This document shows, in pieces, positions 2,000 through 41,442 of a DNA stretch of 41,442 nt. Source of the stretch: a bacterium (GTDB lineage Bacteria > Zhuqueibacterota > Zhuqueibacteria > Oceanimicrobiales > Oceanimicrobiaceae); assembly GCA_046756745.1 (NCBI GenBank), contig JBHHWX010000002.1:1-41442 (forward strand). The letters run 5' to 3'. Under the pieces are notes generated by a model, which saw only the letters and a list, made by a program, of their open reading frames with translations, did not search any database and was not told the DNA's origin. Position 1 is the stretch's first letter. Each line of letters starts with the position of its first letter. The position numbers and the translations under genes are program-made.

Positions 2000-2049
2000 G
2001 CTCGGCGGGGATGCCTTCGCTAAGAGGCTTTTCGAGTTTTCGTTCAGAC
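2000..2049 (-). repeat. Partial reverse copy of the TGTCTGAACGAAAAC-ended miniature element
   Basis: Reverse complement reads GTCTGAACGAAAACTCGAAAAGCCTCTTAGCGAAGGCATCCCCGCCGAGC, matching the copies at 7846 and 30934. Confidence 0.8.
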
Positions 2050-2082
2050 CTTATCTTAAGGAGGATGTATTTAAACGTGACC

Positions 2083-3087
2083 ATGATCTTACGCTCCAAG
2101 TTGCTCATCCTGTCTGCGATTGCCCTATTTTCATGTGTTGGCAATGATGAATTTGAAATCCCTGATACATCGCACATGAGGTGGTTCAAAGGCAATACGC
2201 ACACACATACAACCAGGAGCGATGGCGACTCGTCACCGGAATACGTTGCAAACTGGTACAAGGAGCACGGCTATGATTTTCTGGTCATGTCCGATCACAA
2301 CTTCCTGACGGATGTTAAAGCGCTTGCTCACCTCGTTGATACAACCTTCTTATTGATTCCAGGTGAGGAGGTTACGACAAGCTTTCAAGAAAAGCCCGTT
2401 CATGTAAACGGCTTAAATATCGCAAAGCCGGTGAAGCCTGTCGTGGACACTTCACTTGTGGGCACCATTCAAAAAAATGTCAATGCAATTCGTCAGGTGA
2501 AAGGGGTTCCTCACATCAACCATCCAAATTTTAGATGGGCGTTCGGGCATAACGTGATTTTCAAAATACAGAACAATAGACTCCTGGAAATTTATAACGG
2601 TCATCCACTTGTCAATAATTTTGGCGGCGGCGGCTGGCCAGGAATGGAACAGGTTTGGGATCAATTGCTGACATCTGGCAAGCGCATTTATGGCATCGCC
2701 GTGGATGACGCGCATCATTTTCAAGGTGAGTTCTCACCAAAACGCTCCAATCCTGGTCGCGGCTGGATACATATGCGCGCGACCACATTAGAAGCCAATG
2801 AAATTATACGCAATCTCGAGGCCGGGCTTTTTTATGCAAGTACCGGAGTTGAGTTAGAAAACATCATCATTAAGCCCATAGCCATTGAAATTTACATTCG
2901 GCAGCACCGAGATTTTAAATACCGCACGGAGTTTATCGGTACGAGAGGGAAAGTGCTCTCTCGATCCGAATCCAATCCAGCGATTTTTGAACTGACGCAT
3001 CAGAAAAAATACGTTCGTGCGAAGGTTTACGATTCCGCCGGCTCTGTTGCCTGGGTTCAACCGGTGTTTATTCACAGAACCAGGTAA
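2083..3087 (+). CDS. PHP-domain (CehA/McbA-like) metallohydrolase, probable lipoprotein
   Basis: PHP motifs KGNTHTHT..SDG, SDHN, PGEE, HINHP, DDAH; lipobox LFSC. Start moved from 1876 because the upstream extension crosses the terminator and a repeat; 2077 (GTG) is an alternative start. Confidence 0.85.
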   Translation: MILRSKLLILSAIALFSCVGNDEFEIPDTSHMRWFKGNTHTHTTRSDGDSSPEYVANWYKEHGYDFLVMSDHNFLTDVKALAHLVDTTFLLIPGEEVTTSFQEKPVHVNGLNIAKPVKPVVDTSLVGTIQKNVNAIRQVKGVPHINHPNFRWAFGHNVIFKIQNNRLLEIYNGHPLVNNFGGGGWPGMEQVWDQLLTSGKRIYGIAVDDAHHFQGEFSPKRSNPGRGWIHMRATTLEANEIIRNLEAGLFYASTGVELENIIIKPIAIEIYIRQHRDFKYRTEFIGTRGKVLSRSESNPAIFELTHQKKYVRAKVYDSAGSVAWVQPVFIHRTR

Positions 3088-3099
3088 AGGACGAGAAAT

Positions 3100-4155
3100 A
3101 TGAAAAGAATCCCCCTTTTCTTGACTATCATTTATTTCGTATGTTATTATCCGTTCTCCATCTCAGCGCAAAATAACATTGAAAGCCTGTTTTACTATAT
3201 TAACCAGCAGCGAAGTTTTGAAAGCCTGCAAACCAATATAGGTAAAATCAGCATCATCGCGCCGGTTGCTTATAATGTCGATGAAGACGGCGTGGTCTGG
3301 GGCGGCGTTGATCCGCGTGTGCTTAAATTAGCCCGGGAGCATAAAGTAGATGTGATGCCGCTGATTCATAACCCCAAGTTTAACCAGGAAACGTTACATG
3401 GGTTACTCATGAGTGAAGAGGCTCGAAAACGGGCAGTTGACAGCCTGCTGGATGAATGTAAATCGTATCACTACCTGGGAATTCAGTTTGATTTTGAAAA
3501 CTTGAACATGAATGACAAAGACCTTTTCACTCAGTTTTTCAAAGAGACGGCGGATGCTTTGCACCGGGAAGACTTTCAGATCAGCGTTGCTGTTGTGCAC
3601 CGTCCGCAGAAATTTCCCGGGCCCACAAAATATTTCAAATGGTTATACAAAAACTGGCGCGCTGGCTATGACTTGAAAGCTTTAGCCCAAATTGGCGATT
3701 TCATATCTGTGATGACCTATTCTCAGCATACGAGAAGGACGCCGCCGGGCCCCAATGCGGGCATTCCTTGGGTTAGAAAAAATATCGAATTCTTTCTTAG
3801 GCACGTGCCTGCGGAAAAACTTTCTTTGGGGATTCCTGTTGTATCCCAGCACTGGAGAGCTGAGCAGGACGATGAGAAATATTTAGCCAATGCGCGCTCC
3901 TGGAGCAAAGCCTTGACCTACCCGGAAGCGATGGCTTTAACAGAACGCTTCGATGCCGAAATCACCTGGCTTGATAAGCAAAAGGTCCCATTTACCTTTT
4001 TCGAAAACGGCGGACTGTTCGAATACATCTTTTTCGAAAATGCCCGAACATTTCGGCACAAACTGGACTTGGCTAAAGAATACAAATTACGTGGGTTTTC
4101 AGTCTGGGTCATCGGTTACGAAGACCCGAATGTGTGGAAGGCTCTGCAAGAATGA
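3100..4155 (+). CDS. Secreted glycoside hydrolase family 18 (SleL/YdhD-like N-acetylglucosaminidase/chitinase fold)
   Basis: Signal peptide; GIQFDFEN catalytic motif (DxE kept), VMTYSQH, KLSLGIP, LRGFSVWVIG. Confidence 0.88.
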   Translation: MKRIPLFLTIIYFVCYYPFSISAQNNIESLFYYINQQRSFESLQTNIGKISIIAPVAYNVDEDGVVWGGVDPRVLKLAREHKVDVMPLIHNPKFNQETLHGLLMSEEARKRAVDSLLDECKSYHYLGIQFDFENLNMNDKDLFTQFFKETADALHREDFQISVAVVHRPQKFPGPTKYFKWLYKNWRAGYDLKALAQIGDFISVMTYSQHTRRTPPGPNAGIPWVRKNIEFFLRHVPAEKLSLGIPVVSQHWRAEQDDEKYLANARSWSKALTYPEAMALTERFDAEITWLDKQKVPFTFFENGGLFEYIFFENARTFRHKLDLAKEYKLRGFSVWVIGYEDPNVWKALQE

Positions 4156-4187
4156 GAGTAGCGTTTTGCAAAAAAGTGCAAAAAAAG

Positions 4188-4233
4188 AACGTGGATAACG
4201 CGGATTTAGCGGATCTGAACAGATTGGACGGAA
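4188..4233 (+). repeat. Short periodic repeat of 9-10 nt units
   Basis: AACGTGGAT AACGCGGAT TTAGCGGAT CTGAACAGAT TGGACGGAA between convergent genes. Confidence 0.6.
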
Positions 4234-4276
4234 AAGAGTGTTTCGAAGTTAGTGGATGCGGTAGGAATCATGCAGT

Positions 4277-5026
4277 CTATTTGAATTTCGGCAAAAGCCT
4301 GCCAACATAAAACCGCTCTTTGTCTACTAATCGGTTTGGCTCGATTGCATAATCATTGGGATAAAAATACTCCGTATCGGCGCCGATACCGTTTGTTTGC
4401 GGCTGGCTGCCCCAGTAGTGAAAGCCGATAATTTCACCTTCCTGGTCGTAGACCCAGTGCAGAAAAATGCAGGAGTGGCCGGAATTATCTTTGCGCCAAA
4501 ACTGCACAAAGTCGCCAGCGTTAGCATTCTCAAATGCGATTTTCTCCCCCAGCCCATGCGAGGTTAAGGCATAAACCGAACCCATTTCCTCGGGGGTTGA
4601 CAATGAGGAAAGCCCACCTTTTTCCAGCTTGATAAACCATTTATCCACGAACTTCTTCACATCTTCAACGGACATATTTATGATGGCGCCATCAGCGCTT
4701 TGCGAATGCGCCCAATTCTGCAAAACCGACATACCCACTTGCCAGCTCACCCCGACACAGTGCGTGCTGCGATTTTCTCGCGCCGTGCTTAAACGGGCGC
4801 CGAGATAATCGATGTTTTTTGCCGTGCCTAAATAGGTTGAATCATCTTCTGCATCCGGGTTGCCGGCTTTCGGCCAATAGTAACCGCCATTTTGTGGGAT
4901 GCTGTCTCCCATCACATATTGCAGAATTTTTTCTTGAAAAGGATACGTTTGAGGCGTTTTTGTGACGGTGCGGTGAGCGCAATTCAATGCAAACAGCCAA
5001 ACAAAAAATAATAGAATCCGAAGCAT
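4277..5026 (-). CDS. Hypothetical lipoprotein with a putative NlpC/P60 (papain-like) Cys-His dyad
   Basis: Start at 5026 gives MLRILLFFVWLFALNC with a GAGGAGAGG RBS; motifs STHCVG, AGDFVQFWR and SGHSCIF follow the NlpC/P60 order C...GD...H. Confidence 0.6.
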   Translation of the reverse strand: MLRILLFFVWLFALNCAHRTVTKTPQTYPFQEKILQYVMGDSIPQNGGYYWPKAGNPDAEDDSTYLGTAKNIDYLGARLSTARENRSTHCVGVSWQVGMSVLQNWAHSQSADGAIINMSVEDVKKFVDKWFIKLEKGGLSSLSTPEEMGSVYALTSHGLGEKIAFENANAGDFVQFWRKDNSGHSCIFLHWVYDQEGEIIGFHYWGSQPQTNGIGADTEYFYPNDYAIEPNRLVDKERFYVGRLLPKFK

Positions 5027-5065
5027 TTGAGTATGCAATTTTCCTCTCCTCGATGAATTCCGCAA

Positions 5066-5133
5066 AAATCCCAAATTCCAACAACCAAATCCCAACTTCA
5101 TTTAGGGATTTGGGATTTGTTAAATTAGGATTT
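5066..5133. repeat. Heptamer-based (AAATCCC/GGGATTT) imperfect palindrome
   Basis: AAATCCCAAATTCCAACAACCAAATCCCAA ... GGGATTTGGGATTTGTTAAATTAGGATTT; 5109-5131 matches 9141-9163 in reverse at 22/23 nt. Confidence 0.7.
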
Positions 5134-5190
5134 ACAGTAGCATGTTCAAAAGTTTGTAATTAAACAGGTTTATAAATTGGTTTACGTAAG

Positions 5191-7686
5191 CTACTCAGGC
5201 TGATAATTGACCCAAATCGGACTTGACCAGGCAACCGTGCCGTCGTTATACACAACTCGAAGATAGTAAAAATTCTTGCCAGGTGCAATGGTTTCATCTT
5301 TCAGTCCTTTATAAGCGGTGAGCGTGCCGCCGATTTTGCCCGAGACAAAAAGCTCTTTGTTGTTACGCAAAATATACGCATAAAGGATATCACGAGATCG
5401 GGCTTCGAATGAAATGACAGGAGACGAATCGATGTTGATAACGCTGCCCATCGGGTGGCCGTTGATGAAAAACTCCAGGTATTGTTTTTCACCTGCTGTT
5501 GCATAATTTCGCCGTTCTTTTAATGCCTGCCAAATGTTTTCCCGGGTTAACTCGCCTTTAAGCAACACCCCGGTCAATCCACCTTTGTAAGCATCTTCCC
5601 GCCACCCTTCGTTGGAATGATAGTATAGCCCATGAGAGTCCGAAGCGCCAACAAATCCAAAATGCTTACCCAAAGCAAGACCATCCTGGGCAAACGTGCC
5701 GGGCATGCCGCCGCGGTGACGGATGGGCAGGTTTCCCATGTATTCATTCGCTCCATGAATGGAGACGATTTCATAATTCGTCTGAATATCGGGATCGTGA
5801 TCTTCCCAGGTTATACCGCCCCAGGGAGGATGGTGGGGGAAGGCAATGGCATTAAAGTCGCGTAAAGTTCGAAATAGCGAAACGGCATCGTAAGCTATCT
5901 TACCATGGTGGTTGAAAAAAGGACTATCCTCGCCGCCCTTAAAATAGACATTTTTGTGTCCGATCTTAACGGTCGAATCCTGACTGCCGCTCCAGGTCGA
6001 GTGCGTCCACTCGTATCCGTTGATGGTCACGAACTTTCCGGGCTGATTATAGATTTCGTTTAACGCTTTGAGGTAAGCCCATTCACCCGGAGAACAATGA
6101 TTGTTCCCCAGTCGTAAGGCATCGTGATCTGTGATCGCTAAGAAGTCCAGACCATAGATATTTTTATATAAATTGTACAGTTCGTCAAAACTGCCGGATC
6201 CGTCAGAATAGGCCGTGTGCACATGAAGCTCACCATAGTAAACTTGGTAATGGCCCTGTTTGGTGGGACCGCGGTAGGAATCAGCCGCTGCCATTTCCAG
6301 ATTTTCCGGATACGATTTCTGCACATATTTCTTAAGCCGGACTTTCTGCTTTTTGGGATTTTTACGCGTCATTTTTTGTAAAAAGATGGTCTTACGATCG
6401 CGTCGCGCCATCCAGGCTTCGCGATCGGACATCCAGGCGAAATGAACGGTAAAACCCCGCAATCCCCATCCCAGCTCATCCAACAGCCAATTTTCACTCC
6501 AGGAGCCGTTTTCATAAAATGCTGCGCTAAACACATGATCATGCCGGTTAAAAAGATAAAGCCTTCCGAAGGGATCAAAAGTCAGGGTTGGATATTCATA
6601 CGATTGTGTCTCGCTTCGGCTGGTTAAATTGACACCCTTCATTTCCTGCAGCGGCTCATACCACAACTTGCCGTCGAATGCCCGGACAACGGGATAGCGA
6701 ATGATCCCCCAGCCGTTCTCTCCGCGCCGATTGGTGGTCCAGGCAATCCACAATTTCTTATCGTACCAGGCCAAGGTTGCTTTGCTATCGATAGCCGGGT
6801 GCGAGCTGACCCGAATTGGGTTTTGTAATAATTTATCTTTTTTGAAGCGATTGATGTAAACGTCTGTGTTGTGATTGGCTGTATAATCCCAGGCAAACCA
6901 AATGGCGCCATCAGGCGCTTCGAGAAGGGTAGGGCGATAGGCATAACCGGGCCGATTCTCCAGAATGATTTCCTCAGACCAGCGGCCGTGTCGAAAATAT
7001 TTGGCGACAATTTCTATGTTTTTTTCTGCAGTGCCGCGTTCCCAGGCAATCCAGACTCTTCCAGAGGCGTCCGCGAACACGACCGGCCTGAAATCATAAG
7101 ACTCAGTCGAAGTCATTTGCATTTCATTCCCCAAGTGACCTTCCGAATAAGTGCGTGCATAAATGTTCCATTGTTTTTGCCTTTTCGCGCACCAGACAAT
7201 CCAGACGACGTCATCCGGAGTCACGGCAATTCTTGGACGGTATTCTATCCCGGATTCGGCACTTACCTGTACCGGGGTTTTCCATTCGGGTTCTCCATCG
7301 AGTTTCAAATAGCGTTTTGGCGGAACGGTTTGAAGAACTTCTTTAAATTGCAACCCGGAATCCTTAAACGAGCTTAAAAAAATCGCTTCCTTGCCGGATT
7401 GCGAGGTAAAATTATAAGCAAGATAAACATTTTTTTTGCTGTCGATGGCAATGGATGGGTATTCCAATTTACCGTATTCAGCCTGACGATAACCAGGCAC
7501 ATGAAATTCTTCGGAAAAGACCAGGTCGCTTTCTAATTCAAACCAATATTTTGTTTCCCGGCTTGGAGGATAGTTTTTATCAACATGATGAGGAGTAGCG
7601 AATTGAAATGAAAGGATTGCAAACAACATGATGACAAGAAGTCCAATTTCAAAATGCCTTTTTCTGAGTTTCATGCTCTGCTTCAT
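5191..7686 (-). CDS. Secreted protein with an N-terminal beta-propeller-like repeat region and a C-terminal PHP/DUF3604-type metallohydrolase
   Basis: Repeated blades (RPxxAxxxDxxVWIxW); C-terminal YGELHVHTAYSDG, ITDHD, GYEWT, GHKNV, PHHP, ASDSH, AWSSPIWV. Confidence 0.8.
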   Translation of the reverse strand: MKQSMKLRKRHFEIGLLVIMLFAILSFQFATPHHVDKNYPPSRETKYWFELESDLVFSEEFHVPGYRQAEYGKLEYPSIAIDSKKNVYLAYNFTSQSGKEAIFLSSFKDSGLQFKEVLQTVPPKRYLKLDGEPEWKTPVQVSAESGIEYRPRIAVTPDDVVWIVWCAKRQKQWNIYARTYSEGHLGNEMQMTSTESYDFRPVVFADASGRVWIAWERGTAEKNIEIVAKYFRHGRWSEEIILENRPGYAYRPTLLEAPDGAIWFAWDYTANHNTDVYINRFKKDKLLQNPIRVSSHPAIDSKATLAWYDKKLWIAWTTNRRGENGWGIIRYPVVRAFDGKLWYEPLQEMKGVNLTSRSETQSYEYPTLTFDPFGRLYLFNRHDHVFSAAFYENGSWSENWLLDELGWGLRGFTVHFAWMSDREAWMARRDRKTIFLQKMTRKNPKKQKVRLKKYVQKSYPENLEMAAADSYRGPTKQGHYQVYYGELHVHTAYSDGSGSFDELYNLYKNIYGLDFLAITDHDALRLGNNHCSPGEWAYLKALNEIYNQPGKFVTINGYEWTHSTWSGSQDSTVKIGHKNVYFKGGEDSPFFNHHGKIAYDAVSLFRTLRDFNAIAFPHHPPWGGITWEDHDPDIQTNYEIVSIHGANEYMGNLPIRHRGGMPGTFAQDGLALGKHFGFVGASDSHGLYYHSNEGWREDAYKGGLTGVLLKGELTRENIWQALKERRNYATAGEKQYLEFFINGHPMGSVINIDSSPVISFEARSRDILYAYILRNNKELFVSGKIGGTLTAYKGLKDETIAPGKNFYYLRVVYNDGTVAWSSPIWVNYQPE

Positions 7687-7811
7687 TTTAAGAATGTCAG
7701 TTTGGAGGTCCGTCCTCTTAATTCCAATTTTTACAAAATAAGCAAAGTTACGTCAATAAAAAAGCAAAAAAGTATTAGCTTATAAATTGACAAATTCTTA
7801 AGATATAACAA

Positions 7812-7985
7812 TGAGTTTGGACTTTTCGGCAAAGCTCCTTGCCCGGTGTCTGGACGAAAACTTGGAAAAGGCGCAATTGAAAACCTCTTCGCGAAGGCGT
7901 CCCGCCGAGCAATGTTCTACCTTAAGTCTATGCCAGTCAGGCCTCGGCAAGAGGCCTTCGGGTAAGTGAGTTTGGACTTTTCGGC
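7812..7985 (+). mobile_element. Miniature repeat element (TGTCTG(A/G)ACGAAAAC end plus GAAGGCGTCCCGCCGAG hairpin) bracketed by a 19-bp direct repeat
   Basis: TGAGTTTGGACTTTTCGGC at 7812-7830 and 7967-7985; 7877-7912 is identical to 30965-31000 (36 nt). Confidence 0.8.
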
Positions 7986-8031
7986 CTTAGGTATCACTGA
8001 TGCAGATCTCAAAGAAAGGGAGGGAGTCGTT

Positions 8032-9135: not shown

Positions 9136-9140
9136 AGAAC

Positions 9141-9184
9141 ATCCCAATTTAACAAATCCCAAACCTGTGGTGAGCGAAGTCGAA
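9141..9184 (+). repeat. Heptamer repeat arm joined to a CCTGTGGTGAGCGAAGTCGAA REP-like unit
   Basis: 9141-9163 matches the reverse complement of 5109-5131; followed by a GAGCGAAGTCGAA motif. Confidence 0.6.
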
Positions 9185-9195
9185 TCCACCCCTAT

Positions 9196-9508
9196 GCGGC
9201 TGTGCAAAATTGATTGGGTAATTATATCTGGCAAAGGTAACATTTGTTTCTTAACGCAGAGATACATACACTAAAAGGCAAAACGATTTGGGGCAAAATA
9301 ATTTGTAAAGAAAGCAGAAATACCCATCGAGCCTTTGCCCATCCGGCATCTGCCTGGAATCTGCCAGAGAAATCCCACTGAATTGAATTCAATAAGGTTT
9401 ATTTCTGCGGGATTTCTATTTCTGTGGGCGGATTTTTTTAATAGTTTTGCCCAAAATTGTTTTGCCTTTCTTCGTTAAGATTTACCAAGTTATTTTCGCA
9501 CACATCCC
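9196..9508. mobile_element. Nested inverted-repeat element
   Basis: Inner arms 9274-9298 and 9445-9469 are inverted at 23/25 nt; TCTTAACG/CGTTAAGA pair outside them; degenerate outer ends (GGCTGTGCAAAAT / ATTTTCGCACAC). Confidence 0.65.
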
Positions 9509-9528
9509 AAGTAAAACAATCGGAACCT

Positions 9529-10761: not shown

Positions 10762-10850
10762 CGATCCTAAAGTCTTGTATCCATTGGTAGCCCTTATCCG
10801 TTGAGATTTTTCTATCAAATCTTCATTAATACCCTGTGATCGGTTACTAA

Positions 10851-11046
10851 CCTGAATAATTCATAGCCACCAAGACACGAAGACGCAAAGGGCTCGCAAA
10901 GCTTTAATTTATTGTGAGTTAGGCTGTCAATGTTGGAATCTTCAAATATTGGTTTGAAAACAAAGGTTAATAACTCATCATGGTTTAACTTAGTGATTTC
11001 TTTGTGACTTAGCGCCTTCGTGGCTAAAATTCATGAATAATCCAGG
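10851..11046. mobile_element. Miniature element with CCTG(A/G)AT(A/T)ATTCAT terminal inverted repeats enclosing an inverted AGCCAC(C/G)AAG 8-nt-period doublet
   Basis: CCTGAATAATTCAT (10851-10864) versus ATGAATAATCCAGG (11033-11046), 12/14; inner arms 10865-10890 and 11000-11025. Confidence 0.75.
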
Positions 11047-11068
11047 GTGAAAGAGTAATTTGTTTAAG

Positions 11069-11097
11069 TTGACTCTGATTATTCGATTCGTTAAATT
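11069..11097 (+). promoter_or_regulatory. Sigma70-type promoter of the DUF302-aro operon
   Basis: TTGACT-17 nt-TAAATT, 33 nt upstream of the ATG at 11131. Confidence 0.6.
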
Positions 11098-11130
11098 TTA
11101 TTCTATCGGCACAAATAGAAAGGTGTAAAA

Positions 11131-11514: not shown

Positions 11515-11525
11515 CCTTCTGGCAG

Positions 11526-12638: not shown

Positions 12639-12706
12639 CCTGAATTTACACACAACAAAACAGATGAGTTCACAAAAGTCAAACCTGCATTCTTCAAGCG
12701 GTCACG

Positions 12707-12769
12707 TTGGGTGTTCAGCCTTTAGGCTGTCAGTCCCATAAAGATAGCACGCTAACGCGTGAACACCAA
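12707..12769. repeat. REP-like doublet between tyrA and aroA
   Basis: TTGGGTGTTCAGCCTTTAGGCTG ... CACGCTAACGCGTGAACACCAA: two small hairpins in inverted orientation with complementary GGTGTTCA/TGAACACC feet. Confidence 0.7.
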
Positions 12770-12790
12770 TTCACTAAAGCTGGAAAGATT

Positions 12791-24053: not shown

Positions 24054-24157
24054 GTAACCGGTCAGTTCTGTGAGGTGGTAATGCAGGCATCTTGCCTGCA
24101 AGATGCCTGCAGGCTGGAAGCCTGCTTTACATTTTTCCTTTGTAACTGACCGCTGAC
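24054..24157. mobile_element. Miniature element with GTAACCGGTCAGTT terminal inverted repeats enclosing a GCAGGC REP doublet
   Basis: GTAACCGGTCAGTT (24054-24067) versus AACTGACCGCTGAC (24144-24157); inner GTAATGCAGGCATCTTGCCTGC...GCAGGCTGGAAGCCTGCTTTAC at 24078-24130. Confidence 0.75.
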
Positions 24158-24176
24158 TAATCGGTGGTATTTTTTC

Positions 24177-24205
24177 TTGACTTCATAAAGCCAAATCATT
24201 ACTTT
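24177..24205 (+). promoter_or_regulatory. Sigma70-type promoter of the partner-switching genes
   Basis: TTGACT-17 nt-TACTTT, implying a leader of about 220 nt. Confidence 0.55.
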
Positions 24206-24431
24206 GTAGCTTCAAAACTTTAGGTTGTCCGATAATCTGAATTACTGGGTAGCGCTAAAAATAAACCCAGATGCAACACAATTCAACTATTCACGTTTCA
24301 TTTTGTTAGTGTACAATCGTTCGTCCTGAATTCGACGCAAGGGTGCGTTTAGGTGTCCGATTGCGCTCAAGTACACGGCATGATTGATGTTTAATATCAA
24401 TTTCATACAAATTTCAGGAGGAAAATACTAA

Positions 24432-28490: not shown

Positions 28491-28532
28491 GCTATAAGGA
28501 AATCTAATTCCAAATATCCGTTTAATAAATGA

Positions 28533-28957
28533 CTAACATTTCTCCATTTCTCACTTCGCCAGAATGACTTAAGTTACTATAAAACAAAGACGATGAGATG
28601 ATTTCATGATTTCATTCCCGAGTTCGCTTTTTTTATTTACGCCGAAGGCGTTAGACATCAAAGCCCAGGGTTCGTCGAAGACGTACCCTGGGTTGGAAAA
28701 AGAGCATGTCACACGAACCCTGAAAGGGTTCAACAAAAGCGGTCGAAATTAGAACGACATGCACACATACAATACCTACATCCGACGATAAAGAATCGTT
28801 TTTTGTGAAACCCCTTTGGGGTTTTGATTTTCAGTGTTTTCGTAAACCGAGGGTACGGCTATCGCCGAACCCTCGGCTGTGTTGTTTTAACCCCGATGGG
28901 ATGGGTCGGGGTAATAATCAATGCGAAACTTTCGCTCAATGAACTGAGAAATGTTAG
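28533..28957. mobile_element. 425-bp MITE-like element with 12-bp terminal inverted repeats, a 7-bp target-site duplication and an internal inverted pair of triple-hairpin repeats
   Basis: TAAATGA|CTAACATTTCTC ... GAGAAATGTTAG|TAAATGA; internal arms at about 28639-28738 and 28801-28902. Confidence 0.85.
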
Positions 28958-29003
28958 TAAATGAGTAAAGCAACAAGAATCATTTTCTACGACTGAGACG
29001 AAT

Positions 29004-29942: not shown

Positions 29943-30929
29943 ATGTCGTTTCAGTTACCTCAGTCTTTCGATTTGGCCAGACTGCCCACTCCCATCGAAA
30001 AATTGGAAAACACAACCCAGCTTTTCGAAGGGGCGGACATATATATCAAACGCGACGATTTTACCGGTTTAGCCACAACAGGGAATAAAATCAGAAAATT
30101 AGAATTCCTACTTTACGAAGCGGTAGAGCGGAATTGCGATTGTGTTATCACTTGTGGAGGCGTGCAGTCGAACCACGCGCGCGCTACAGCGGTCGCCGCC
30201 GCAAAGCTTGGACTTAAGCGCTATCTTATATTAAGAAACGGCATGGGGACAGCATTAGAAGGAAACTTATTTTTGGATCGCTTGGTGGGAGCTGAGATCG
30301 AATACATCTCGCATGAAGAATACTCCGAAGTCGATGAAATCATGCATACAAAGGCAAAAATGCTCAGTGACAGAGGAGAAACAGCTTACATCATTCCGGA
30401 AGGGGGGTCCAATGAGGTCGGATCCTGGGGGTATGTTAAAGCTGCCAAGGAGATCGACGAACAATTAAAAAACATGCAAATCAAAATTCATCATATTGTG
30501 ATCCCGGTTGGGTCGGGTGGCACGTACGCCGGCTTACTTATTGGAAAATATTTATACGATCTGCCTGCGCTGATTCATGGCATCAACGTGTGCGAAAATC
30601 AGACTTATTTTGTAAAAAAAATAGACATGCTCTTAAAGGCCATGAAACGACGTTATGACCTGCAACTTCCGATTCGCACCTCTGACATCCGTATCATCGA
30701 CGGATACGTCGGTAAAGGTTACGGGCTAAGCAGCCAGGTAGAGCTTGATCTGATCAAGCAGGTTGCACAGACCGAGGGAATCATCCTTGATCCGGTTTAT
30801 GCAAGCAAGGCATTTTTAGGAATGAAGGATCAGATCCGGAAGGGTAAGTTTAAAACCGGGGAAAATGTGTTGTTTATCCATACCGGAGGAATTTTTGGGC
30901 TTTTCCAGAAGAAGGAGTTATTTTTTTAA
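29943..30929 (+). CDS. D-cysteine desulfhydrase-family PLP enzyme
   Basis: PTPIE, KRDD, GNKIRKLE (PLP Lys), QSNHARA, GSGGT, LDPVY, HTGG; AAGGAG RBS before ATG 29943. Confidence 0.9.
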   Translation: MSFQLPQSFDLARLPTPIEKLENTTQLFEGADIYIKRDDFTGLATTGNKIRKLEFLLYEAVERNCDCVITCGGVQSNHARATAVAAAKLGLKRYLILRNGMGTALEGNLFLDRLVGAEIEYISHEEYSEVDEIMHTKAKMLSDRGETAYIIPEGGSNEVGSWGYVKAAKEIDEQLKNMQIKIHHIVIPVGSGGTYAGLLIGKYLYDLPALIHGINVCENQTYFVKKIDMLLKAMKRRYDLQLPIRTSDIRIIDGYVGKGYGLSSQVELDLIKQVAQTEGIILDPVYASKAFLGMKDQIRKGKFKTGENVLFIHTGGIFGLFQKKELFF

Positions 30930-30933
30930 CGAA

Positions 30934-31062
30934 TGTCTGAACGAAAACTCGAAGAATGCGCGATTTGAAAACCTCTTCGCGAAGGCGTCCCGCCGAGCAA
31001 AAGAAGGAATTCATCCTCGGCCAGGAGGCCTTCGGGAAGATATGGTCGTTTTCGTTCAGACA
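30934..31062. mobile_element. 129-bp MITE with perfect 15-bp terminal inverted repeats
   Basis: TGTCTGAACGAAAAC (30934-30948) and GTTTTCGTTCAGACA (31048-31062); internal GAAGGCGTCCCGCCGAG...CTCGGCCAGGAGGCCTTC hairpin; fills the gap between convergent stop codons. Confidence 0.88.
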
Positions 31063-31377
31063 CTAACTAACTGTCGTTTTTAGAGCGCCCCCCACCGCAT
31101 ATTCAATTTCCAGAACGTTCTTTTTTAAGCGATTCGTCATATCCTTCCGATCATCGATCATAATGCTTGTAGATAAACGGTCGGCGAAGTTCATGATTTC
31201 CTGGTGACATTTGCGGATAATCGCCATGATTTCATCCCAGTCGCCTTCGATGATCAATCCCATTGCTGTCAACTGGTAGTCGAGCTCGCTTTTATCGACG
31301 ATTGTCATGGCTTTGGCAAGCATTTCTTTGATTTCATCGCCCGTGCCAACCGGGACGAATTGAACATGTGCAAGCAT
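31063..31377 (-). CDS. MTH1187/YkoF-family thiamine-binding protein
   Basis: FVPVGTG, YQLTAMGLIIEGDWDE, IDDR; 104 aa. Confidence 0.88.
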   Translation of the reverse strand: MLAHVQFVPVGTGDEIKEMLAKAMTIVDKSELDYQLTAMGLIIEGDWDEIMAIIRKCHQEIMNFADRLSTSIMIDDRKDMTNRLKKNVLEIEYAVGGALKTTVS

Positions 31378-31427: not shown

Positions 31428-31517
31428 AATATATGAAAATTCACACTAATGTCAAGTCAAAAAAGAGTCAAAATTTGCAAATTAAATGTTGACATTCCAT
31501 AAGTGAATTAATATATT
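31428..31517. promoter_or_regulatory. Back-to-back sigma70 promoters
   Basis: + strand TTGACA-17-TATATT (31489-31517); - strand TTGACA-16-TATATT (31455-31428). Confidence 0.6.
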
Positions 31518-31566
31518 TTCTTTTCACAAAAAGCCCTAATTTGCTGAGCCAACGGCCTCATCCATA

Positions 31567-35520: not shown

Positions 35521-35527
35521 TCACTTC

Positions 35528-38500
35528 ATGAGCCACATTCTTATATCGAAGCTGAGGCGGATAGCAGCAGCCATGTTCCTCGTCGTTATCTTTTGTAGCA
35601 TGATTCCGTCTTTTGTGATATCACAAGAGTCACGCATCGACAAGGAATTTAATTTTGCCAAACAGTTGTTTGACGACAGTTTGTATGTTTTGTCGGCGCA
35701 GCAATTCACAGAATTTGCAAGCTCCTATCCGAATCATGAAAACGCGGATATGGCCTTATTTCTGAGCGGCGAAGCCTTCTATACTGCCGGTAAATACAAA
35801 AAAGCATTCACGGCCTACAAGAATTTGGAGATCCAGTATCCGCAATCCCCAAAGCTTGCACTCGGGAGATACCGGTTAGCCCAGTGCCAATTAAAGCAAA
35901 ATCATTATCTCGAAGCCGGACAGTTGTTTAAACGACTTGCCATTTTCCATCCGGAAAGCGATTTAGCCCCACAAGCCCAACTTGCAGCCGGAAGAGCCTT
36001 TGCAAAGTCGAACGCGCAAAAGAAAGCGTTAAATGAATATTTCCGGGTCGTACAATATTATCCGCATTCTCAGGAACAACTGGAAGCCCGGCTTGAAATT
36101 GTGCAGATTTATTTGCAGCAAAAGAGATACGGAGACGCCATCGCTCAGATCGATGGACTCTTTCGCATTTATGGCGCCGATATGCACGACCCGCGGGTTT
36201 TTTTAGTGCAAGCGCGAGTTTTCGAAGAACTGGGGCAGCACGATAAAGCCGAAAAGCTCTACACAAAGTTAATTGCTGATTTTCCCGACTCTTTTGAATC
36301 GCAGAAAGCGCTCTACTATCTCGGCTGTATTTTTGAGAAGAATGGTGACTTTGAACATGCTTTACTGCAATTCCAAAACATCTCTGATAATAGCGAACAA
36401 CGCGAGTTTTCTTCACAAGTTGCTCTAAAAAGAGGGGACATTTTAACAAAATTTGGACGTTTTGAAGACGCTTTGCAAAGCTATGAGCGGGTCCAATCGG
36501 GATCTCCGCAAATTCGATTTCACGCTGGGCTCAAAAGCGCTGAAATTTACTCGCGACAGAAGAACCCTGCGTTGGCTTCCGATATCCTCGAGAAAATCAT
36601 CAAAACTCTCGAGGGAACCGGTTCTCAAAAAAACCTTATGACGCCACTTCTCGAACAAGCTTATGTCGCCTGGGCGCACGCGTTAACAAAATTGGGTTCG
36701 CTTCGTGAAGCGCTGAACGTGATTGATGAATTTGAAGAAAAATTTCCAAAGAGCCAGCAGAGCCCGGTCATGATTTTTCTTAAAGCTGAAATTTATGAAA
36801 AGTCAAAAAAATTCGATCGGGCTGCCCGGGTCTATGAATCTTTTATAGAAAACTTTAACCAGGACATACGCATCGACGATGCACAGTTCGCTTTAGGCCG
36901 GTGTTACGAGCAGGAAGGCGAATATGGCGAAGCGGTCTTCGAATATGAGAAATACCTCAATAAGTACCCGGCTGGTGACCTTTTTGATGAGGTGAAAAAG
37001 AGAAAGAATATTATCGATGAGACTATTCAGCTCAAAGAAACGACTTCTATCAATTATCTTTCCCATATGCTTAAACAGTTTAGAGACGGAGCCGGTTCGT
37101 CAAATTGGCATTACGAGTTAGGTAAAGTTTATCATGGTCTCAAAGAATTCAAACGTGCAATACAGGAATTAAAACAGGCGCTAAGCGAGGCGCCTGCAGA
37201 CAGTACTAAAAAAGACGATCTCTATTTTTATTTAGCCGATTCATATTACAAAGTGGCATTAAAAAAGCAGCTTACGCAGGGAAAAGAAACCGACTCTGCT
37301 TATTTGGACAGCGCAAAAATCAGTTTATCTTTTTTGACTGAAAATCACCCGAATTCAAAGTGGTCCGAAAGGGCTTTTCTTTTGCTCACCCATATTCGGC
37401 TCGATACTCTCAATAATCCGGCCTACAAGCTTTCTGTCCTGAGTGACATTTACGATGCATGGGTAGCTCGTTTCCCGGACAGTCAAAGTTTAGATTATGT
37501 CATGGTCAAATTAGCGAATAGTCTCATTGCCGCACCCGACTCCGATACAACTCAATTTAAGGAAGCATTGTGGCGTTACCAACGCATCCTTGCTGATTTT
37601 CCCAAAAGCGCTTTTCGAGAAGAGGCGTTCTTTGGCGAGGCCATTGCTTTTGATTCATTACAGGCAGACTCCATGGCGATGTCGAAACTTCACGATTTTG
37701 CCAAAATGTATCCTCAGAGCCGCTTGACTCCGCAATGTTTATTTCGATTAGCGCAGTTACATTCCGAAACCGGAAACGAGAAGAAAGCTATCGAGTATTT
37801 ACAGCTCGTTCTCAGCCGGTTCTTTTATTCCGACGTCGCACGGAAAGCCAAAATTGCCTTAGCTGAGCTGTTTTACAAAATAGGGGATTATCAGTCCTCA
37901 GTTGAACATTTTAACGGTGAAAAACATTTCTCTCTAAACGAGGCGCGCGCGTATGAAGCGCTCGGGGACGATGCAAAAGCGCTTACGAGGTATATTGCCT
38001 TTATTCAAAGCAACCCAAGTCATGAAAATACAATCGACGCGATGCGGGCTGTAGCGCTCATTTCTCGTAAACGAAACAAAACAGCTTTTGCCAAAGAATA
38101 TTACGCCAGCATTATCAACGGAGGCGGTACTTCACTGGATAAATATCTGGCTTATTCCGATTTGGGCGATCTTTTTTTTGAGGAAGGTCTCTATCATGAA
38201 GCTCGTGAGCGCTATTTAAGTGCGATTTCATTATCTGAAACTCGCGCGCGAGAGCGAGTCCCGTGGAGACAAGCGATTCGATGTTTGTACAAACTGAAGA
38301 AATTTACTGCTGCGGAAGCCGATATCAAGAAATTTAAACGCACGTATAAAGATACGAAGAATGAGGAGGGACAGTTTTTAGTTGATAAAGCTCAGGCATA
38401 TCGCGATGAAAAACAATTTGAGCTTGCAATAAAAACCTACAAAAAACTGAAAGGCCGTTTTCAGAAAACAGATTATGGAGCGCTGGGAGAGTTTGGTCTC

Positions 38501-39223
38501 GGCGCCGTTTATCTTATCACGAATCACACGGAAGATGCGCTAAAAATTCTGACTGCCATCCCTTCGAAATATCCCAATAGTGAAGTGACCCCATTAACCT
38601 ATCTTAATTTAGGGGATTTTTATTATAAGTCGCAGCAAATTGAAAATGCCATTCCTGCGTTTAAACAAGTTATCGCTCATCCACAAGCCGGTAAACATGT
38701 CCAAAGCGCTTTACGTTATTTGATTAAGTGCTATAATGATTTAAAGCTGTGGGATCAAGCTATCGTTTACACACGCGAATATTTAGCGAAATACCCACAT
38801 GCTGACGACGGTTTCAGTAAGCAGATCGAAATCGCGAGAAATCTTATGAATTTACGCGAGTACGACCGGGCGCTCGACCGCTTTCAGGCTTTGAAGTTGC
38901 ATGCGGACGCTGAAAGTGAAGCTGAGATACAGTTTTACCTCGGTCAATGTTACAAGGAGATGGGAGATTTTGAGCGAGCGGTATCGGAATATTTAAAAGT
39001 GAAATATTTAACCAAACCAACGAAACTACCTTGGCATGTGACCGCCTTATTTGAGGCAGGCGACTCTTTGCTCCGCCTTGGAGAGGCCGTTCAAGCCAAA
39101 AAAATATTCCAGCGTATTTTAGATGAACAAGGTTTGGAAAGCAATTGGGGACGGTTTGCGCAGCAAAAACTAAACGATCTCACAGATTCGAAGCTGTCTT
39201 ACGAACCAAAAGAACCGTTTTAA
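35528..39223 (+). CDS. Large exported tetratricopeptide-repeat protein
   Basis: Signal peptide followed by TPR pairs over the whole length with recurrent YPxS/FPxS turns (BamD/YbgF-like); start 35528 or 35573. Confidence 0.85.
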   Translation: MSHILISKLRRIAAAMFLVVIFCSMIPSFVISQESRIDKEFNFAKQLFDDSLYVLSAQQFTEFASSYPNHENADMALFLSGEAFYTAGKYKKAFTAYKNLEIQYPQSPKLALGRYRLAQCQLKQNHYLEAGQLFKRLAIFHPESDLAPQAQLAAGRAFAKSNAQKKALNEYFRVVQYYPHSQEQLEARLEIVQIYLQQKRYGDAIAQIDGLFRIYGADMHDPRVFLVQARVFEELGQHDKAEKLYTKLIADFPDSFESQKALYYLGCIFEKNGDFEHALLQFQNISDNSEQREFSSQVALKRGDILTKFGRFEDALQSYERVQSGSPQIRFHAGLKSAEIYSRQKNPALASDILEKIIKTLEGTGSQKNLMTPLLEQAYVAWAHALTKLGSLREALNVIDEFEEKFPKSQQSPVMIFLKAEIYEKSKKFDRAARVYESFIENFNQDIRIDDAQFALGRCYEQEGEYGEAVFEYEKYLNKYPAGDLFDEVKKRKNIIDETIQLKETTSINYLSHMLKQFRDGAGSSNWHYELGKVYHGLKEFKRAIQELKQALSEAPADSTKKDDLYFYLADSYYKVALKKQLTQGKETDSAYLDSAKISLSFLTENHPNSKWSERAFLLLTHIRLDTLNNPAYKLSVLSDIYDAWVARFPDSQSLDYVMVKLANSLIAAPDSDTTQFKEALWRYQRILADFPKSAFREEAFFGEAIAFDSLQADSMAMSKLHDFAKMYPQSRLTPQCLFRLAQLHSETGNEKKAIEYLQLVLSRFFYSDVARKAKIALAELFYKIGDYQSSVEHFNGEKHFSLNEARAYEALGDDAKALTRYIAFIQSNPSHENTIDAMRAVALISRKRNKTAFAKEYYASIINGGGTSLDKYLAYSDLGDLFFEEGLYHEARERYLSAISLSETRARERVPWRQAIRCLYKLKKFTAAEADIKKFKRTYKDTKNEEGQFLVDKAQAYRDEKQFELAIKTYKKLKGRFQKTDYGALGEFGLGAVYLITNHTEDALKILTAIPSKYPNSEVTPLTYLNLGDFYYKSQQIENAIPAFKQVIAHPQAGKHVQSALRYLIKCYNDLKLWDQAIVYTREYLAKYPHADDGFSKQIEIARNLMNLREYDRALDRFQALKLHADAESEAEIQFYLGQCYKEMGDFERAVSEYLKVKYLTKPTKLPWHVTALFEAGDSLLRLGEAVQAKKIFQRILDEQGLESNWGRFAQQKLNDLTDSKLSYEPKEPF

Positions 39224-39333
39224 GTTCTGCCTTTTTTGGTGTATTGAAACTCCCGCGATAAAATCTTTCCTAAAGAGGGAATAACTTCGAGAAAGTAAAG
39301 TATCTTTAAATAACATCATTGGCGTCAATTTTG

Positions 39334-39447
39334 GTAACTATTCAGGCGGTGAGAAGCTTCGGAGTGCAAAACTTTAGTTTTGTACTGTTTCAATAAAAAC
39401 GACAACGCTATAACGTTGCACTCCAATTCTAACGGCTGAATAGTTAA
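39334..39447. mobile_element. Miniature element with TAACTATTCAG terminal inverted repeats enclosing a GGAGTGCAA REP doublet
   Basis: TAACTATTCAG (39335-39345) and CTGAATAGTTA (39436-39446); inner GGAGTGCAAAACTTTAGTTTTGT...ACAACGCTATAACGTTGCACTCC at 39361-39424. Confidence 0.8.
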
Positions 39448-39455
39448 AAACTGCC

Positions 39456-40055
39456 GTGCAGCAGATGAATTCGAAGAACGAGAAGAGTGTCGAGCAGAAC
39501 ATTCAGAAGTCTCTATCGGGCGATCCCAGGGCTTTTGCGTGGATTATCGATAAGTATCAAAAACGTATTTATTTCAGTATCTATCAGATCGTTATGAATC
39601 ATGACGATACGGATGATGTTGTGCAAGAAACGTTTATTAAAGCTTATACGAAGCTGGATACATACGACAGGAGTTATCCGTTTTACCCCTGGCTATACCG
39701 GATAGCGATTAATACATCGATAAATTATCAAAAAAAGAAAATGCGGCATCGAGCGTTATCTCTTGACGAACTGGATAGCAATAACCACCATCGTGACATC
39801 GCGGAGTCTCCCAGCCAGCTTTTCGAATCGGAGAGCAGTGAATTAGTTCTCAGATTGAAAGAAGCTCTTACAAAATTGCCGGCAGAACAACGAGCTGTCT
39901 TTCTTTTAAGAGTACGTGAAGAATTAAGCTATAAAGAAATAAGCGATACTTTAGAAATATCTATCGGAACCGTTATGTCGCGTCTTTCGCGGGCCAGAGA
40001 AAAGTTAAGGATCCATTTACACGGATATTTCGAAACAAAAGATAGTGAGGTCTAA
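39456..40055 (+). CDS. ECF-family RNA polymerase sigma factor
   Basis: DDVVQETFIKAY, WLYRIAIN (region 2), LSYKEISDTLEISIGTVMSRLSRAR (region 4); start 39456 or 39465. Confidence 0.95.
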   Translation: MQQMNSKNEKSVEQNIQKSLSGDPRAFAWIIDKYQKRIYFSIYQIVMNHDDTDDVVQETFIKAYTKLDTYDRSYPFYPWLYRIAINTSINYQKKKMRHRALSLDELDSNNHHRDIAESPSQLFESESSELVLRLKEALTKLPAEQRAVFLLRVREELSYKEISDTLEISIGTVMSRLSRAREKLRIHLHGYFETKDSEV

Positions 40056-40059
40056 TTTC

Positions 40060-41207
40060 ATGAATTGTTTTGATACAGAGCAAAAGCTGGGGAGCTATGT
40101 AGAGCGTGTCTGTTCAGAAGCAGAACGGCATGAAATCGAAGCGCATCTCCAAACGTGTGGGCATTGTACTCAACAGGTAAAAGCTCTTCATCAAATAGAC
40201 ATTTTGCTGAAAAACGAAACCTTTCCGCAACCATCTGAAGAATACTGGCTTGAGTTACCGAAAACCATTATCCGCCGGCTTGGCTTAAGTCAACCTCTCA
40301 CATTTCAGAACAAGGTCTCACAATTTGTTAACGCTCTGGCGGTTCCAAAGCATATTGCGTGGAGCATGACCGGCGCAGTTGCGGTCATGGTGACACTTTT
40401 TTTGATAATGCATAGAGAGCGGCCTATTTCCGGATCCCCGCCGATTGCCGAACAACAGGTTACGCTCGAAGCGTCCGCCTCATCAGGAGAAAATACGAGC
40501 CCGAACAACCCACCCCAGGCGAATTCGATCGCACAGAAGCCCGCCAAGATACCTGGGGCCGTTCCCCAGTTACCGGAAGTGGACAAAGGAACGAACTCGA
40601 AAGAAAAGAGTCGCAAAGCTTCCAATGAGAGCCCCTCGGATTTGGCAATGGAAACCAGGCCCGAGGGACTTCGGAACAAGACTTTTTCAGCGCCTTTGCA
40701 GGGTGTTGCAATCTTGCCGGTTCGACATGATAAACTCATGAAGCCCAAATATGAGCGAGTTGTCTATCCGGTACCTTACATGATGTTCACGACGACAACG
40801 GATTTCGTTCAAGAGGATGACGACAGCCGGCGCCGGGAGATTCAGACTTATTCTTTCGATCACGGGCGCCAGACACCGCGAACACGCCGCCCCGATAAAG
40901 TCAACGACCTCAAAGTCCAAGAAAGCGAATTTTACGAAATTCTGTGGATTGCGCAAGAATCTTATCAGAAAAACGCAATATTTGGTTGTCTTATTTAAGC
41001 CGCGAAACACATCCGACGTTCCGTACATTGGCGATTTTCAATTTAGCCGGGGTCCTCTCGAGAATTGTCGAAGAATCCCAGGAACCTGAAATGGCGCAAG
41101 AAGCGTTAAGCTTTTACAAGAAACATGAGGAATCGTTACGGGTCCAGATGAAACGACGCTATGAAGAGAAAATAGCCTTTTTTAAATCCCTTCTAAAAAG
41201 GGAATAA
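40060..41207 (+). pseudogene. Zinc-finger (zf-HC2/ZAS) transmembrane anti-sigma factor, apparently frameshifted near 40960-40975
   Basis: C...HLQTCGHC motif, TM segment and low-complexity linker in ORF 40060-40998; a protein-like helical C terminus continues in the -1 frame to 41207, just before the terminator. Confidence 0.7.
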
Positions 41208-41250
41208 CGTTTCGAATAGAGACCTTCGGAATCCCCCTCCTCCTTTAGCC

Positions 41251-41288
41251 AAAGAAGGCCGTTGATTTATGAGCGGCCTTCTTTTTTT
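41251..41288 (+). terminator. Intrinsic terminator after the ECF/anti-sigma pair
   Basis: AAAGAAGGCCGTT...AGCGGCCTTCTTTTTTT. Confidence 0.85.
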
Positions 41289-41333
41289 GATTTTGATTTG
41301 ATTGCGATATTTTATAAGGGAGTCAATCAATCA

Positions 41334-41442
41334 TGTTTGAACGAAAACTCGACCCTGATTGTCATACCGCAATCTCCCCGCTTAAAGAATGCGAGGGCAG
41401 GTTTAAGCAGGAATCTCATCCTTTCAAGCACGAGATTCCCAA
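41334..41442 (+). mobile_element. Left end of another TGT(C/T)TGAACGAAAAC element with a different (GTCATACCGC...GGAATCTC...GAGATTCC) cargo, truncated by window edge
   Basis: TGTTTGAACGAAAACTCGA matches 30934-30952 at 18/19 nt, then diverges. Confidence 0.7.

Follow-up and report, generated by a model that had tools for sequence, protein, structure and literature searches.

The window analysed here, by which we mean the whole 41,442-nt stretch of DNA, is contig C2 of the 6.6-Mb assembly (946 contigs, 47% G+C) of a vent bacterium. Its genes are housekeeping genes of Bacteroidota-like character, including SusD, GH18, a shikimate operon, Lon and UvrD, and the window contains no Rfam or tRNA match. 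The subject of this work is a set of short intergenic elements among these genes, in which outer terminal inverted repeats (TIRs), here called the shell, enclose a core, or cargo, between them. A first-pass annotation of the sequence had listed seven such elements and noted that no transposase is encoded in the 41 kb, and indeed none of the 32 open reading frames scanned matches a Pfam transposase family. It had proposed a two-tier non-autonomous system, in which doublets of repetitive extragenic palindromes (REPs) preferentially enter, or are captured and spread by, the shells of MITEs, transposable elements of the miniature inverted-repeat type.

Inverted repeats were found at the places where these elements had been reported. 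For example, the arms at 30934-30948 and 31048-31062 are 15 nt long and 100% complementary, those at 28521-28544 and 28946-28969 span 24 nt, and inner inverted pairs lie at 39361-39390/39395-39424 and 24082-24095/24098-24111. All seven elements are also multi-copy, and the possibility that their repeats are single-copy sequences can be set aside. In the genome, 37 full-length matches were found for the 129-bp element at 30934 and 32 for the 114-bp one at 39334; full copies number 9 for 24054-24157 and 3 for 10851-11046, the latter together with partial ones, and the element at 41334 has ~5 copies. The element at 28533-28957 has one near-full second copy and module matches elsewhere in the genome, and the modules of 9196-9508 recur separately. 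Two descriptions required revision: 9196-9508, taken to be one element, does contain a clear TIR pair (Table 1) but is a mosaic, and the end described as beginning with TGTCTG is real but one base longer, reading GTGTCTG...CAGACAC. In addition, copies at 1994-2051 (half an element), 7812-7986 (a hybrid) and 12684-12767 had been missed.

Ends and cores across the genome

To survey the genome for TIR-bounded elements we used a curated list of eight end types; a de novo inverted-repeat census with 11-mers was dropped as too noisy. The eight-end census returned 340 elements, 320 of them with a core of at least 30 nt, and these cores fall into clusters of 110, 59, 48, 21, 21, 18, 10 and 3 members plus 30 singletons. 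The most conspicuous end is the 15-mer TGTCTGAACGAAAAC, which has 206 exact occurrences, and 460 when up to two mismatches are allowed, where an arithmetic estimate for exact chance occurrences is ~0.01. Its sites form 120 adjacent +/- pairs, 117 of which span 120-184 bp, and the 117 short T5 pairs divide among unrelated core clusters of 34, 33, 29, 16, 2, 1, 1 and 1, with at least five unrelated cores of ~100 bp enclosed by the TGTCTGAACGAAAAC end. Across end types, T5 and T5b ends surround cores 0, 1, 2, 4 and 7, T3 ends surround cores 5 and 6, and T6 ends surround core 3. The same core, in turn, can sit in several shells: core 0 is found in S1 (33 elements), S2 (21), T5 (33) and T5b (13), and in 10 elements with unlike ends. 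A ninth end, GGGGCTGTCCAAAAAG, forms 25 pairs and encloses at least two cores, one of which is a TGTC-ATTGCGAG dimer; among 51 such dimers, 33 lie in T5 or T5b shells, 9 in the shell of this ninth end (GGGGCTGTCC), 4 have no shell and 5 are mixed. Unlike-ended hybrids, such as the element at 7846-7986 with a T5 left end and an S1 right end, suggest recombination between composites. Shells and cargoes thus occur in varied combinations genome-wide, far beyond the window, and the earlier proposal that related shells hold unrelated cargo, rather than one fixed cargo each, is upheld by the table of 320 elements.

Over the genome as a whole, 14-mers with at least eight occurrences cover ~181 kb (2.7%) in 3715 loci, the longest of which is at most 487 bp. 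No clear bias in gene context was seen among 319 elements, of which 159 lie between tandem genes, 38 between convergent and 37 between divergent genes, 55 at contig edges and 30 in open frames of at least 110 aa.

The flanks of the elements identify the shells as transposon ends. T5 elements are flanked in the pattern TANNTA-G...C-TANNTA, with the same NN on both sides in 77 of 115 cases and the same entire 6-mer in 35 of 115, which amounts to a direct duplication. Exact 8-mer duplications of arbitrary sequence flank 12 of 33 T3 and 10 of 21 T6 elements, both of which have GTAAC-type ends, and ~5 bp are duplicated in three to four of the five elements with the T4 end ACTAACATTTCTC. The S1 (AAGCTTGGCCGAAAAG) and S2 (AAACGCGGTCGGAAAG) ends are flanked by CTAG, a fixed sequence that is ambiguous as a duplication. 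Because five end types carry target-site duplications (TSDs), the elements are true miniature transposons and their shells are true MITE ends; TIRs of ~15-30 bp, small size, many copies and a lack of coding capacity complete the list of MITE features. The T5, T5b, S1 and S2 ends are mutually related, being alike at 7-11 of 16 positions and all ending in C[CG]GAAAA[CG].

Within a family, elements have been copied at full length, with a mean pairwise identity of 81-92% in shell and core alike and conservation that is even along the element. Divergence among family members, at 7-19%, makes a burst in the very recent past unlikely. Such copying is also what would be expected of ordinary MITE families with a common transposase, each a single diverged unit with the usual foldback inside, for which any likeness to REP-associated tyrosine transposase (RAYT) systems would be merely historical. 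This simpler account strikes us as quite unlikely, since five dissimilar cores behind one 16-19-bp end cannot all derive from one insertion sequence (IS) by internal deletion, and further observations on both sides of it are described with the nested elements and the relatives below.

A different view of the shell is implied by the available text of PMC3733652 (Di Nocera et al. 2013), in which REP dimers are described as 'inserted within' longer palindromes in three species, REP-free copies are missing in A. variabilis and H. neapolitanus, and the embedding is left uninvestigated. The shell might then be a palindromic target of REP dimers, or part of a tyrosine-transposase unit, and not a transposon end, a view comparable with the TIR-associated tyrosine transposases of that paper. 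The palindrome given there for H. neapolitanus (GGGaaGCTT-GAAAaACC) resembles the S1 end AAGCTTGGCCGAAAAG. Near-empty shells are rare in our genome too, with four short pairs among the 340 (T3 of 30 bp and 44 bp, S2 of 42 bp and T5 of 54 bp), and no DDE-type partner was found for the main shells in this assembly, which is fragmented and has no contigs below 1.5 kb, a limit that applies to every failure to find IS partners in this genome. Nevertheless, we hold this view to be very improbable. The shells lie between direct duplications whose sequence varies (8 bp for T3 and T6, the NN of TANNTA for T5), the 30-bp T3 shell has a perfect 8-bp duplication, T5 ends thrive in genomes that have neither the REP arms nor a close RAYT homologue, and the Y1 transposase genes are bordered by REPs only, not by shells. 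Y1 transposases (IS200/IS605) are not known to make such duplications.

Table 1. Repeat elements of the window, with the type of shell and core
Feature	Position	Strand	Description
Half element	1994..2051	none	One REP arm (CTCGGCGGGGATGCCTTCG), spacer and T5-type right TIR (2036-2051)
Solo right end, S1-type shell (CTTTTCGGCAAAGCTC)	7812..7837	none	
Hybrid composite	7846..7986		T5-type left TIR, REP arm pair (first arm 7892-7909), curtailed S1-type right end
Mosaic element	9274..9469		30-nt TIR pair 9274-9303/9440-9469 (87%) around inverted pair 9368-9387/9398-9417
T2-type MITE, 196 bp	10851..11046		15-bp ends CCTGAATAATTCATA, the ends of a 1.73-kb IS1380-family IS on contig C885
Hairpin repeat module, GTGAACACC family	12684..12767		Also found in cores of T3-type elements
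T3-type MITE (GTAACCGGTCAG...)	24054..24157		Family TSD 8 bp; GCAGGC hairpin core, which is core 6, 10 copies in T3 shells
T4-type MITE shell (ACTAACATTTCTC)	28532..28958		TSD ~5 bp, here AAATG on both sides; nested cargo inside
Nested cargo of the T4 element	28631..28885		Inverted pair of three-hairpin clusters, like the flanks of IS200-like genes on contigs C279 and C432
T5-type composite (GTGTCTGAACGAAAAC ends)	30933..31063		Core 0; fills the gap between two convergent genes
Core-0 REP arm pair	30980..31034		CGAAGGCGTCCCGCCGAG (30980-30997) and CTCGGCCAGGAGGCCTTCG (31016-31034)
T6-type MITE (GTAACTATTCAG...)	39334..39447		Family TSD 8 bp, decayed in this copy; GGAGTGCAA hairpin pair, which is core 3
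T5-type left end; TGTC-tagged hairpin core of another kind	41333..41442		Cut by the window end; ~5 relatives in the genome

Cargoes, Y1 transposase genes and nesting

Two inverted arms make up every core and form an imperfect palindrome. The alignment-based consensus folds show arm-to-arm as well as TIR-to-TIR pairing in four of eight families (S2 with core 0, core 1, core 2 and core 6); in the other four the arms are mostly self-folded or unpaired, and TIR pairing is present in all eight. Compensatory base changes number 0-3 pairs in each family, which is not enough to decide whether the fold is under selection. The arm of core 0, CGAAGGCGTC-N1-4-GCCGAG, occurs at 320 loci, and its orientation is strongly ordered, with 136 '+-' pairs against a single '-+' pair. 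A recognised shell lies on both sides of 72 of the 136 pairs, on one side of 44 and on neither side of 20, so that 116 are shelled on at least one side. Of the 20 pairs that have no recognised shell, 17 are away from contig ends, and most of these 17 have decayed S1-like ends when inspected by eye.

The genome contains seven matches to Y1 transposases, and repeats found as cargo also lie beside some of these genes. The 188-aa product of a gene on contig C217 has as its best NCBIfam family REP_Tyr_transpos, the REP-associated tyrosine transposases, at 67.7 bits (E 1e-18), which is below the family cut-off of 80 bits. Core-0 arms flank this RAYT-like gene on both sides with the same +/- polarity and no shell, and the flanking segments have 177 and 128 matches in the genome. 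Similarly, IS200-like genes on contigs C279 and C432 are flanked by three-hairpin clusters that are the inner arms of 28631-28885. Two kinds of cargo are therefore the same repeats as those bordering Y1 or RAYT-like genes, and those genes are flanked by REPs alone, without shells. Cores 1 and 4 are of another kind, with a TGTC tag and an 8-bp stem beginning with AT, arranged as head-to-head dimers; the ATTTCGA family is likewise of the CGTC/TGTC type. The loops of the TGTC-tagged cores are longer than the 4-5 nt of the CGTC class description, in which stems have 8-9 bp.

A further, abundant repeat family was also observed, represented by the unitig TGACGTTGTTGAAAAACTCTGTCAGGGTTAGAGTCTTAC with k-mer counts up to 126 (for example in the present genome, G000, at C300:7493-7532). 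The 3' end of a second gene of the RAYT-like type (171 aa, scoring 69 bits against REP_Tyr_transpos, less than the cut-off) is overlapped by the palindrome of this family, CTCTGACAGGGTT..AACCCTGTCAGAG, and TGACGTTGTTGAAAAACTCTGTCAGGGTTAGAGTCTTAC may be the REP family of this 171-aa protein's gene.

One nesting event can be shown directly, because related T4 shells exist without the cluster pair. T4 elements on contigs C54 (168 bp) and C360 have the ends and ~100 subterminal nt of 28532-28958, but not the 255-bp cluster pair, and the junction in the 28.5-kb element lies at TTTACGCCGAA, a sequence common to the empty shell and the cluster end. This comparison of filled with empty relatives demonstrates nesting at 28532-28958, and it also tells against the ordinary-MITE account. 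The composite itself has a second copy on C22 that is 95.7% identical. Additional copies of the cluster pair lie on C69, C794, C358, C277 and C555, and by position (flanks were not inspected) none coincides with the five T4-bounded elements. The first-pass annotation had recommended a search for empty sites and empty shells; shells empty of the cluster pair are thus available, but no empty site was bridged.

Other layered elements were found elsewhere. T3/core-5 elements on C158, C344 and C104 contain a core-0-type (Y7-type) REP pair whose spacer is ~103 nt long. When five sequences of the 103-nt spacer from long REP pairs were examined for a remnant of the RAYT gene, one gave a weak tblastn match (E 0.049), which we do not use as evidence. 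On C121 the order is reversed, with an S2 element within the spacer of a REP pair, and nesting therefore runs both ways. Finally, small insertions in hairpin loops are present in a 184-bp element on C219, a 110-bp element on C356 and a 167-bp element on C210, and in 155-bp variants in G013, a genome of another genus. In the latter, five T5+core-0 variants (L024, L037, L041, L043 and L049) carry a 24-nt TTCGACAAAGCTCAGGACAGGCCC-like insertion exactly in the small loop of one REP arm, which looks like a very small element targeting hairpin loops.

Do these nestings follow a targeting rule? RAYT-moved REP doublets could preferentially enter MITE shells, for example at the single-stranded loop of an extruded hairpin. 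The nestings do look independent, one being a Y3-type cluster pair in T4 and another a Y7-type REP pair in T3/core-5; the small insertions fall in hairpin loops (on C219, C356 and C210, and within one arm in G013); and the 28.5-kb junction is at a sequence shared by empty shell and cluster end. However, copies of the Y3-type pair also sit at loci other than T4-bounded elements, the TGTC-ATTTCGA REP dimers are shell-less in nine of ten cases, a MITE also lies inside a REP-pair spacer, and empty shells are so rare (4 of 340) that no target pool is seen. Moreover, the same picture is to be expected if the shell does nothing more than amplify what it encloses. We therefore think a targeting rule unlikely. 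What stands of the two-tier proposal is the TSD-bearing shells, the varied combinations of shell and cargo, the two Y1-linked cargoes and one nesting; preferential entry of REPs is unsupported, because the data are explained equally if nesting happens rarely and by chance and the composite is then amplified. Nor is nesting as consistent as had been claimed, given the shell-less TGTC-ATTTCGA dimers and the reversed order on C121.

Spread of the composites: enzymes and relatives

We consider it rather probable that the elements are composite MITEs, in which a transposon shell surrounds a REP-like hairpin-pair cargo, the composite is spread by its shell, and the two layers reassort. In this scheme, the outer TIRs of 16-20 bp would be recognised by a DDE-type cut-and-paste transposase supplied from elsewhere, and the whole unit of ~110-430 bp would insert, leaving a target-site duplication. 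The cargo would typically be a head-to-head pair of REP-like hairpins, that is, a doublet like those called REPINs. Reassortment, over evolutionary time, would occur in two ways. First, small hairpin elements insert into other elements, as the 28.5-kb element and several of the loop insertions show. Second, elements with a common core or a common shell may recombine, as hybrids such as 7846-7986 suggest. Copying by the shell would make a nested REP pair abundant, and nearly all REP pairs of the main type may be in shells because the shell amplifies the pair nested in it, not necessarily because of an insertion preference. The class of enzyme that moves each shell other than that of 10851-11046, the activity of the RAYT-like protein, and the direction and number of captures are parts of this scheme that we infer.

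For the shell of 10851-11046, a partner is at hand. Contig C885 carries a 1.73-kb IS that shares the 15-bp end CCTGAATAATTCAT with this element and encodes a 464-aa IS1380-family transposase (376 bits, cut-off 180). By sequence, then, the T2 shell appears to have an IS1380 partner, and it is the single shell for which a partner was found. For the others, only the ends give an indication: ends beginning with GTAA and an 8-bp duplication presumably point to IS66 for the GTAAC shells T3 and T6, and the CTAG flanks of S1 and S2 we take to suggest an enzyme of the IS630 or IS5 type. Five PF03050 (IS66) matches are present, and T3 or T6 ends at up to two mismatches lie on none of them. Likewise, no T4-bounded partner IS was found in this assembly or in the fetched loci of six relatives. 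Long open reading frames adjoining solo TIRs are host genes only, and pairs of ends lying 700-3500 bp apart are separate MITEs. A 1320-bp T5 pair on C182, tried as a candidate IS, proved to be two MITEs on either side of a short-chain dehydrogenase gene. Transposase contigs and MITEs have sequence in common only on C885, where a repeat lies just upstream of the IS end, and on C477, which carries a T5 MITE. The search for autonomous copies that had been recommended earlier thus yielded the IS1380 element for T2 and the core-0 arms around the RAYT-like gene on C217, and none for the main shells. Separately, many contigs between C700 and C935 (for example C864, C716, C835 and C823) are 1.6-2.9 kb long with a single transposase gene, and are either the organism's own or derived from the 5.55% contamination.

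The distribution of ends and arms among relatives differs. The T5 end (at most one mismatch) occurs at 344 sites here and at ten or more sites in 8 of 18 genomes of the same family (maximum 130), while several other genomes have 1-3 sites, no more than the control with the reversed pattern. Most of the eight T5-rich genomes have neither the arm motif nor a close RAYT homologue, a distribution that would suit ordinary MITEs, as would the finding that 19 unique T5-bounded elements from three other genera (G013, G007 and G016) enclose the same cores 0, 1 and 4. High numbers of the arm motif, by contrast, coincide exactly with the presence of the cognate RAYT-like gene, which ordinary MITEs would not explain. 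Of 31 genomes, this one has 283 occurrences of the motif and G025, from another family within the class, has 198; among the remaining 29 it is absent from 23 and occurs 1-24 times in 6. Only in G025 is there a close homologue of the C217 gene (49% identity, E 1e-58, other homologues reaching at most 33%), and this RAYT-like gene is likewise flanked by single core-0 arms. In G013, which has no close homologue, many arms are interrupted or decayed, again unlike what ordinary MITEs would lead one to expect. All 13 unique arm pairs seen in G025 share a single additional shell (ACGTGAGTTCGAT...). The element measures 163 bp, and its TA-rich flanking 6-mers are identical in 7 of 15 cases, agree at five of six positions in another 4 and are offset by one base in the remainder. 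When all species genomes were scanned for the arm motif, the matches listed were single occurrences, many of them in genomes that by title are actinomycete or proteobacterial and probably due to chance.

The composites are about as similar between genera as within this genome. The 131-bp copies of G013 have a mean identity of 85.8-88.2% to the 32 copies here, against 88.3% within this genome; between genera overall, T5+core 0 elements are 86-88% and core 1 elements 85-89% identical, and the within-genome range of both families is 83-88%. A housekeeping protein is 61-69% identical across ten other genera of the family, a set that does not include G013. Horizontal spread or constraint is possible as the source of this closeness. 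It would also be explained if two enzymes worked in a standing partnership, with a RAYT-like Y1 transposase making, renewing or swapping the foldback core and a DDE transposase spreading the unit, a general route for REP classes that have no transposase, such as those tagged CGTC/TGTC that are known from several phyla. We regard such a partnership as doubtful.

Several observations weigh against composite MITEs assembled by repeated capture, or at least against parts of that explanation. First, the supposed transposases are elusive: pairs of T5, T5b, S1, S2, T3 or T6 ends lying 700-3500 bp apart enclose no transposase in this assembly. Apart from the IS1380 locus on C885, the 17 PF01609, 5 PF03050, 1 weak PF13586 and 6 PF00665 loci here lack shell ends; the check covered all eight end types on the PF01609 and PF03050 contigs, and all except T2 at the PF00665 loci. 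A further 22 PF01609 and 8 PF00665 loci from six relatives carry none of the ends. Second, the RAYT-like match falls short of NCBIfam's cut-off, two genomes are the basis for linking gene and arms by co-occurrence, and kin are not independent. Third, the TGTC-ATTTCGA family is mostly without shells. Fourth, a single ancient capture, after which the TIRs diverged, accounts for the core-0 row as well as repeated capture does, because the four TIR variants and the G025 shell are related (with the same 6-bp TA-rich duplication) and the same composites are found in other genera. Finally, present-day mobility was not seen: four public runs of one study give the window as short repeat-ended contigs, with no empty site bridged, and the contig joints listed in these runs fall inside repeat copies.

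Relation to known repeat families and other features of the window

The MITEs listed for bacteria in the available text of PMC3733652 are Correia/NEMIS, RUP, ERIC and Nezha. The elements described here resemble them in being 70-300 bp long, non-coding, multi-copy and intergenic, in having TIRs of 15-30 bp and TSDs and folding into long hairpins, and in that one family has an IS partner (IS1380). They differ in that several unrelated cores are found per TIR and one core in several TIR variants, in that the cores are REP dimers, one type of them linked to a RAYT-like gene, and in that the main shells yielded no partner IS.

As in REPIN-RAYT systems (bioRxiv 10.1101/2021.07.10.451892; Bertels & Rainey), at least as far as its available text describes them, the RAYT-like gene here is flanked by the same REPs and their abundance tracks the gene, in two genomes. 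That text handles REPINs and MITEs as distinct classes, and the REPINs it describes have no outer TIRs or TSD, whereas the pairs here are for the most part shelled; furthermore, the REP here is not GTAG-tagged and its RAYT-like protein scores below the NCBIfam cut-off. Cores 1 and 4 resemble the CGTC/TGTC-tagged REPs of PMC3733652 in their tag, in a stem starting with AT and in forming head-to-head dimers. According to the available part of that paper, CGTC REP families also occur in Bacteroidetes and are stated to be unassociated with transposase genes. It also records REP dimers regularly within longer palindromes, and the earlier description of the nesting as undescribed was accordingly too strong. 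That part of the paper gives no duplications and no table of shells by cores, and the embedding palindromes in our genome, unlike those described there, behave as transposon ends. In our searches, for which subscription journals were outside the scope, no literature was found on duplication-flanked shells with interchangeable REP cores.

The bacterial interspersed mosaic elements (BIMEs) of enterobacteria and the mosaics of dRS3 and RS in neisseriae are arrays of REP-like hairpins or short modules that are not known to have bounding TIRs or duplications. The elements studied here are like them in placing short hairpin modules in varying intergenic combinations, and unlike them in being discrete TIR-bounded units with duplications. 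dRS3 is also named in section 6 of PMC3733652, in the text available.

REPs and MITEs are usually treated as two classes with their own enzymes and dynamics, and here they are joined in one composite, where one class of REP, although tied to a RAYT-like gene, is copied with duplications in the manner of a transposon. Should this hold generally, it would offer a route of spread to REP classes with no known transposase, and models of REPIN populations may count copies made by another enzyme. It would also provide a natural system in which to ask whether a foldback core helps very short transposons to move.

Two other features of the window were noted. A 270-bp leader (24160-24430) precedes a gene for a STAS/anti-sigma-antagonist protein and has neither a repeat copy nor an Rfam match. 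At 30929-31063, the 131-bp composite spans the whole gap between the stop codons of the genes for a pyridoxal phosphate (PLP)-dependent enzyme and a thiamine-binding protein. The orthologous 30.9-kb site is not syntenic in 13 relatives, five of which have no match to the thiamine-binding gene in the fetched stretch; in the other eight this gene is displaced, lying farther on, ~0.8-1.2 kb past the PALP gene, which indicates that the 30.9-kb locus has been rearranged here.

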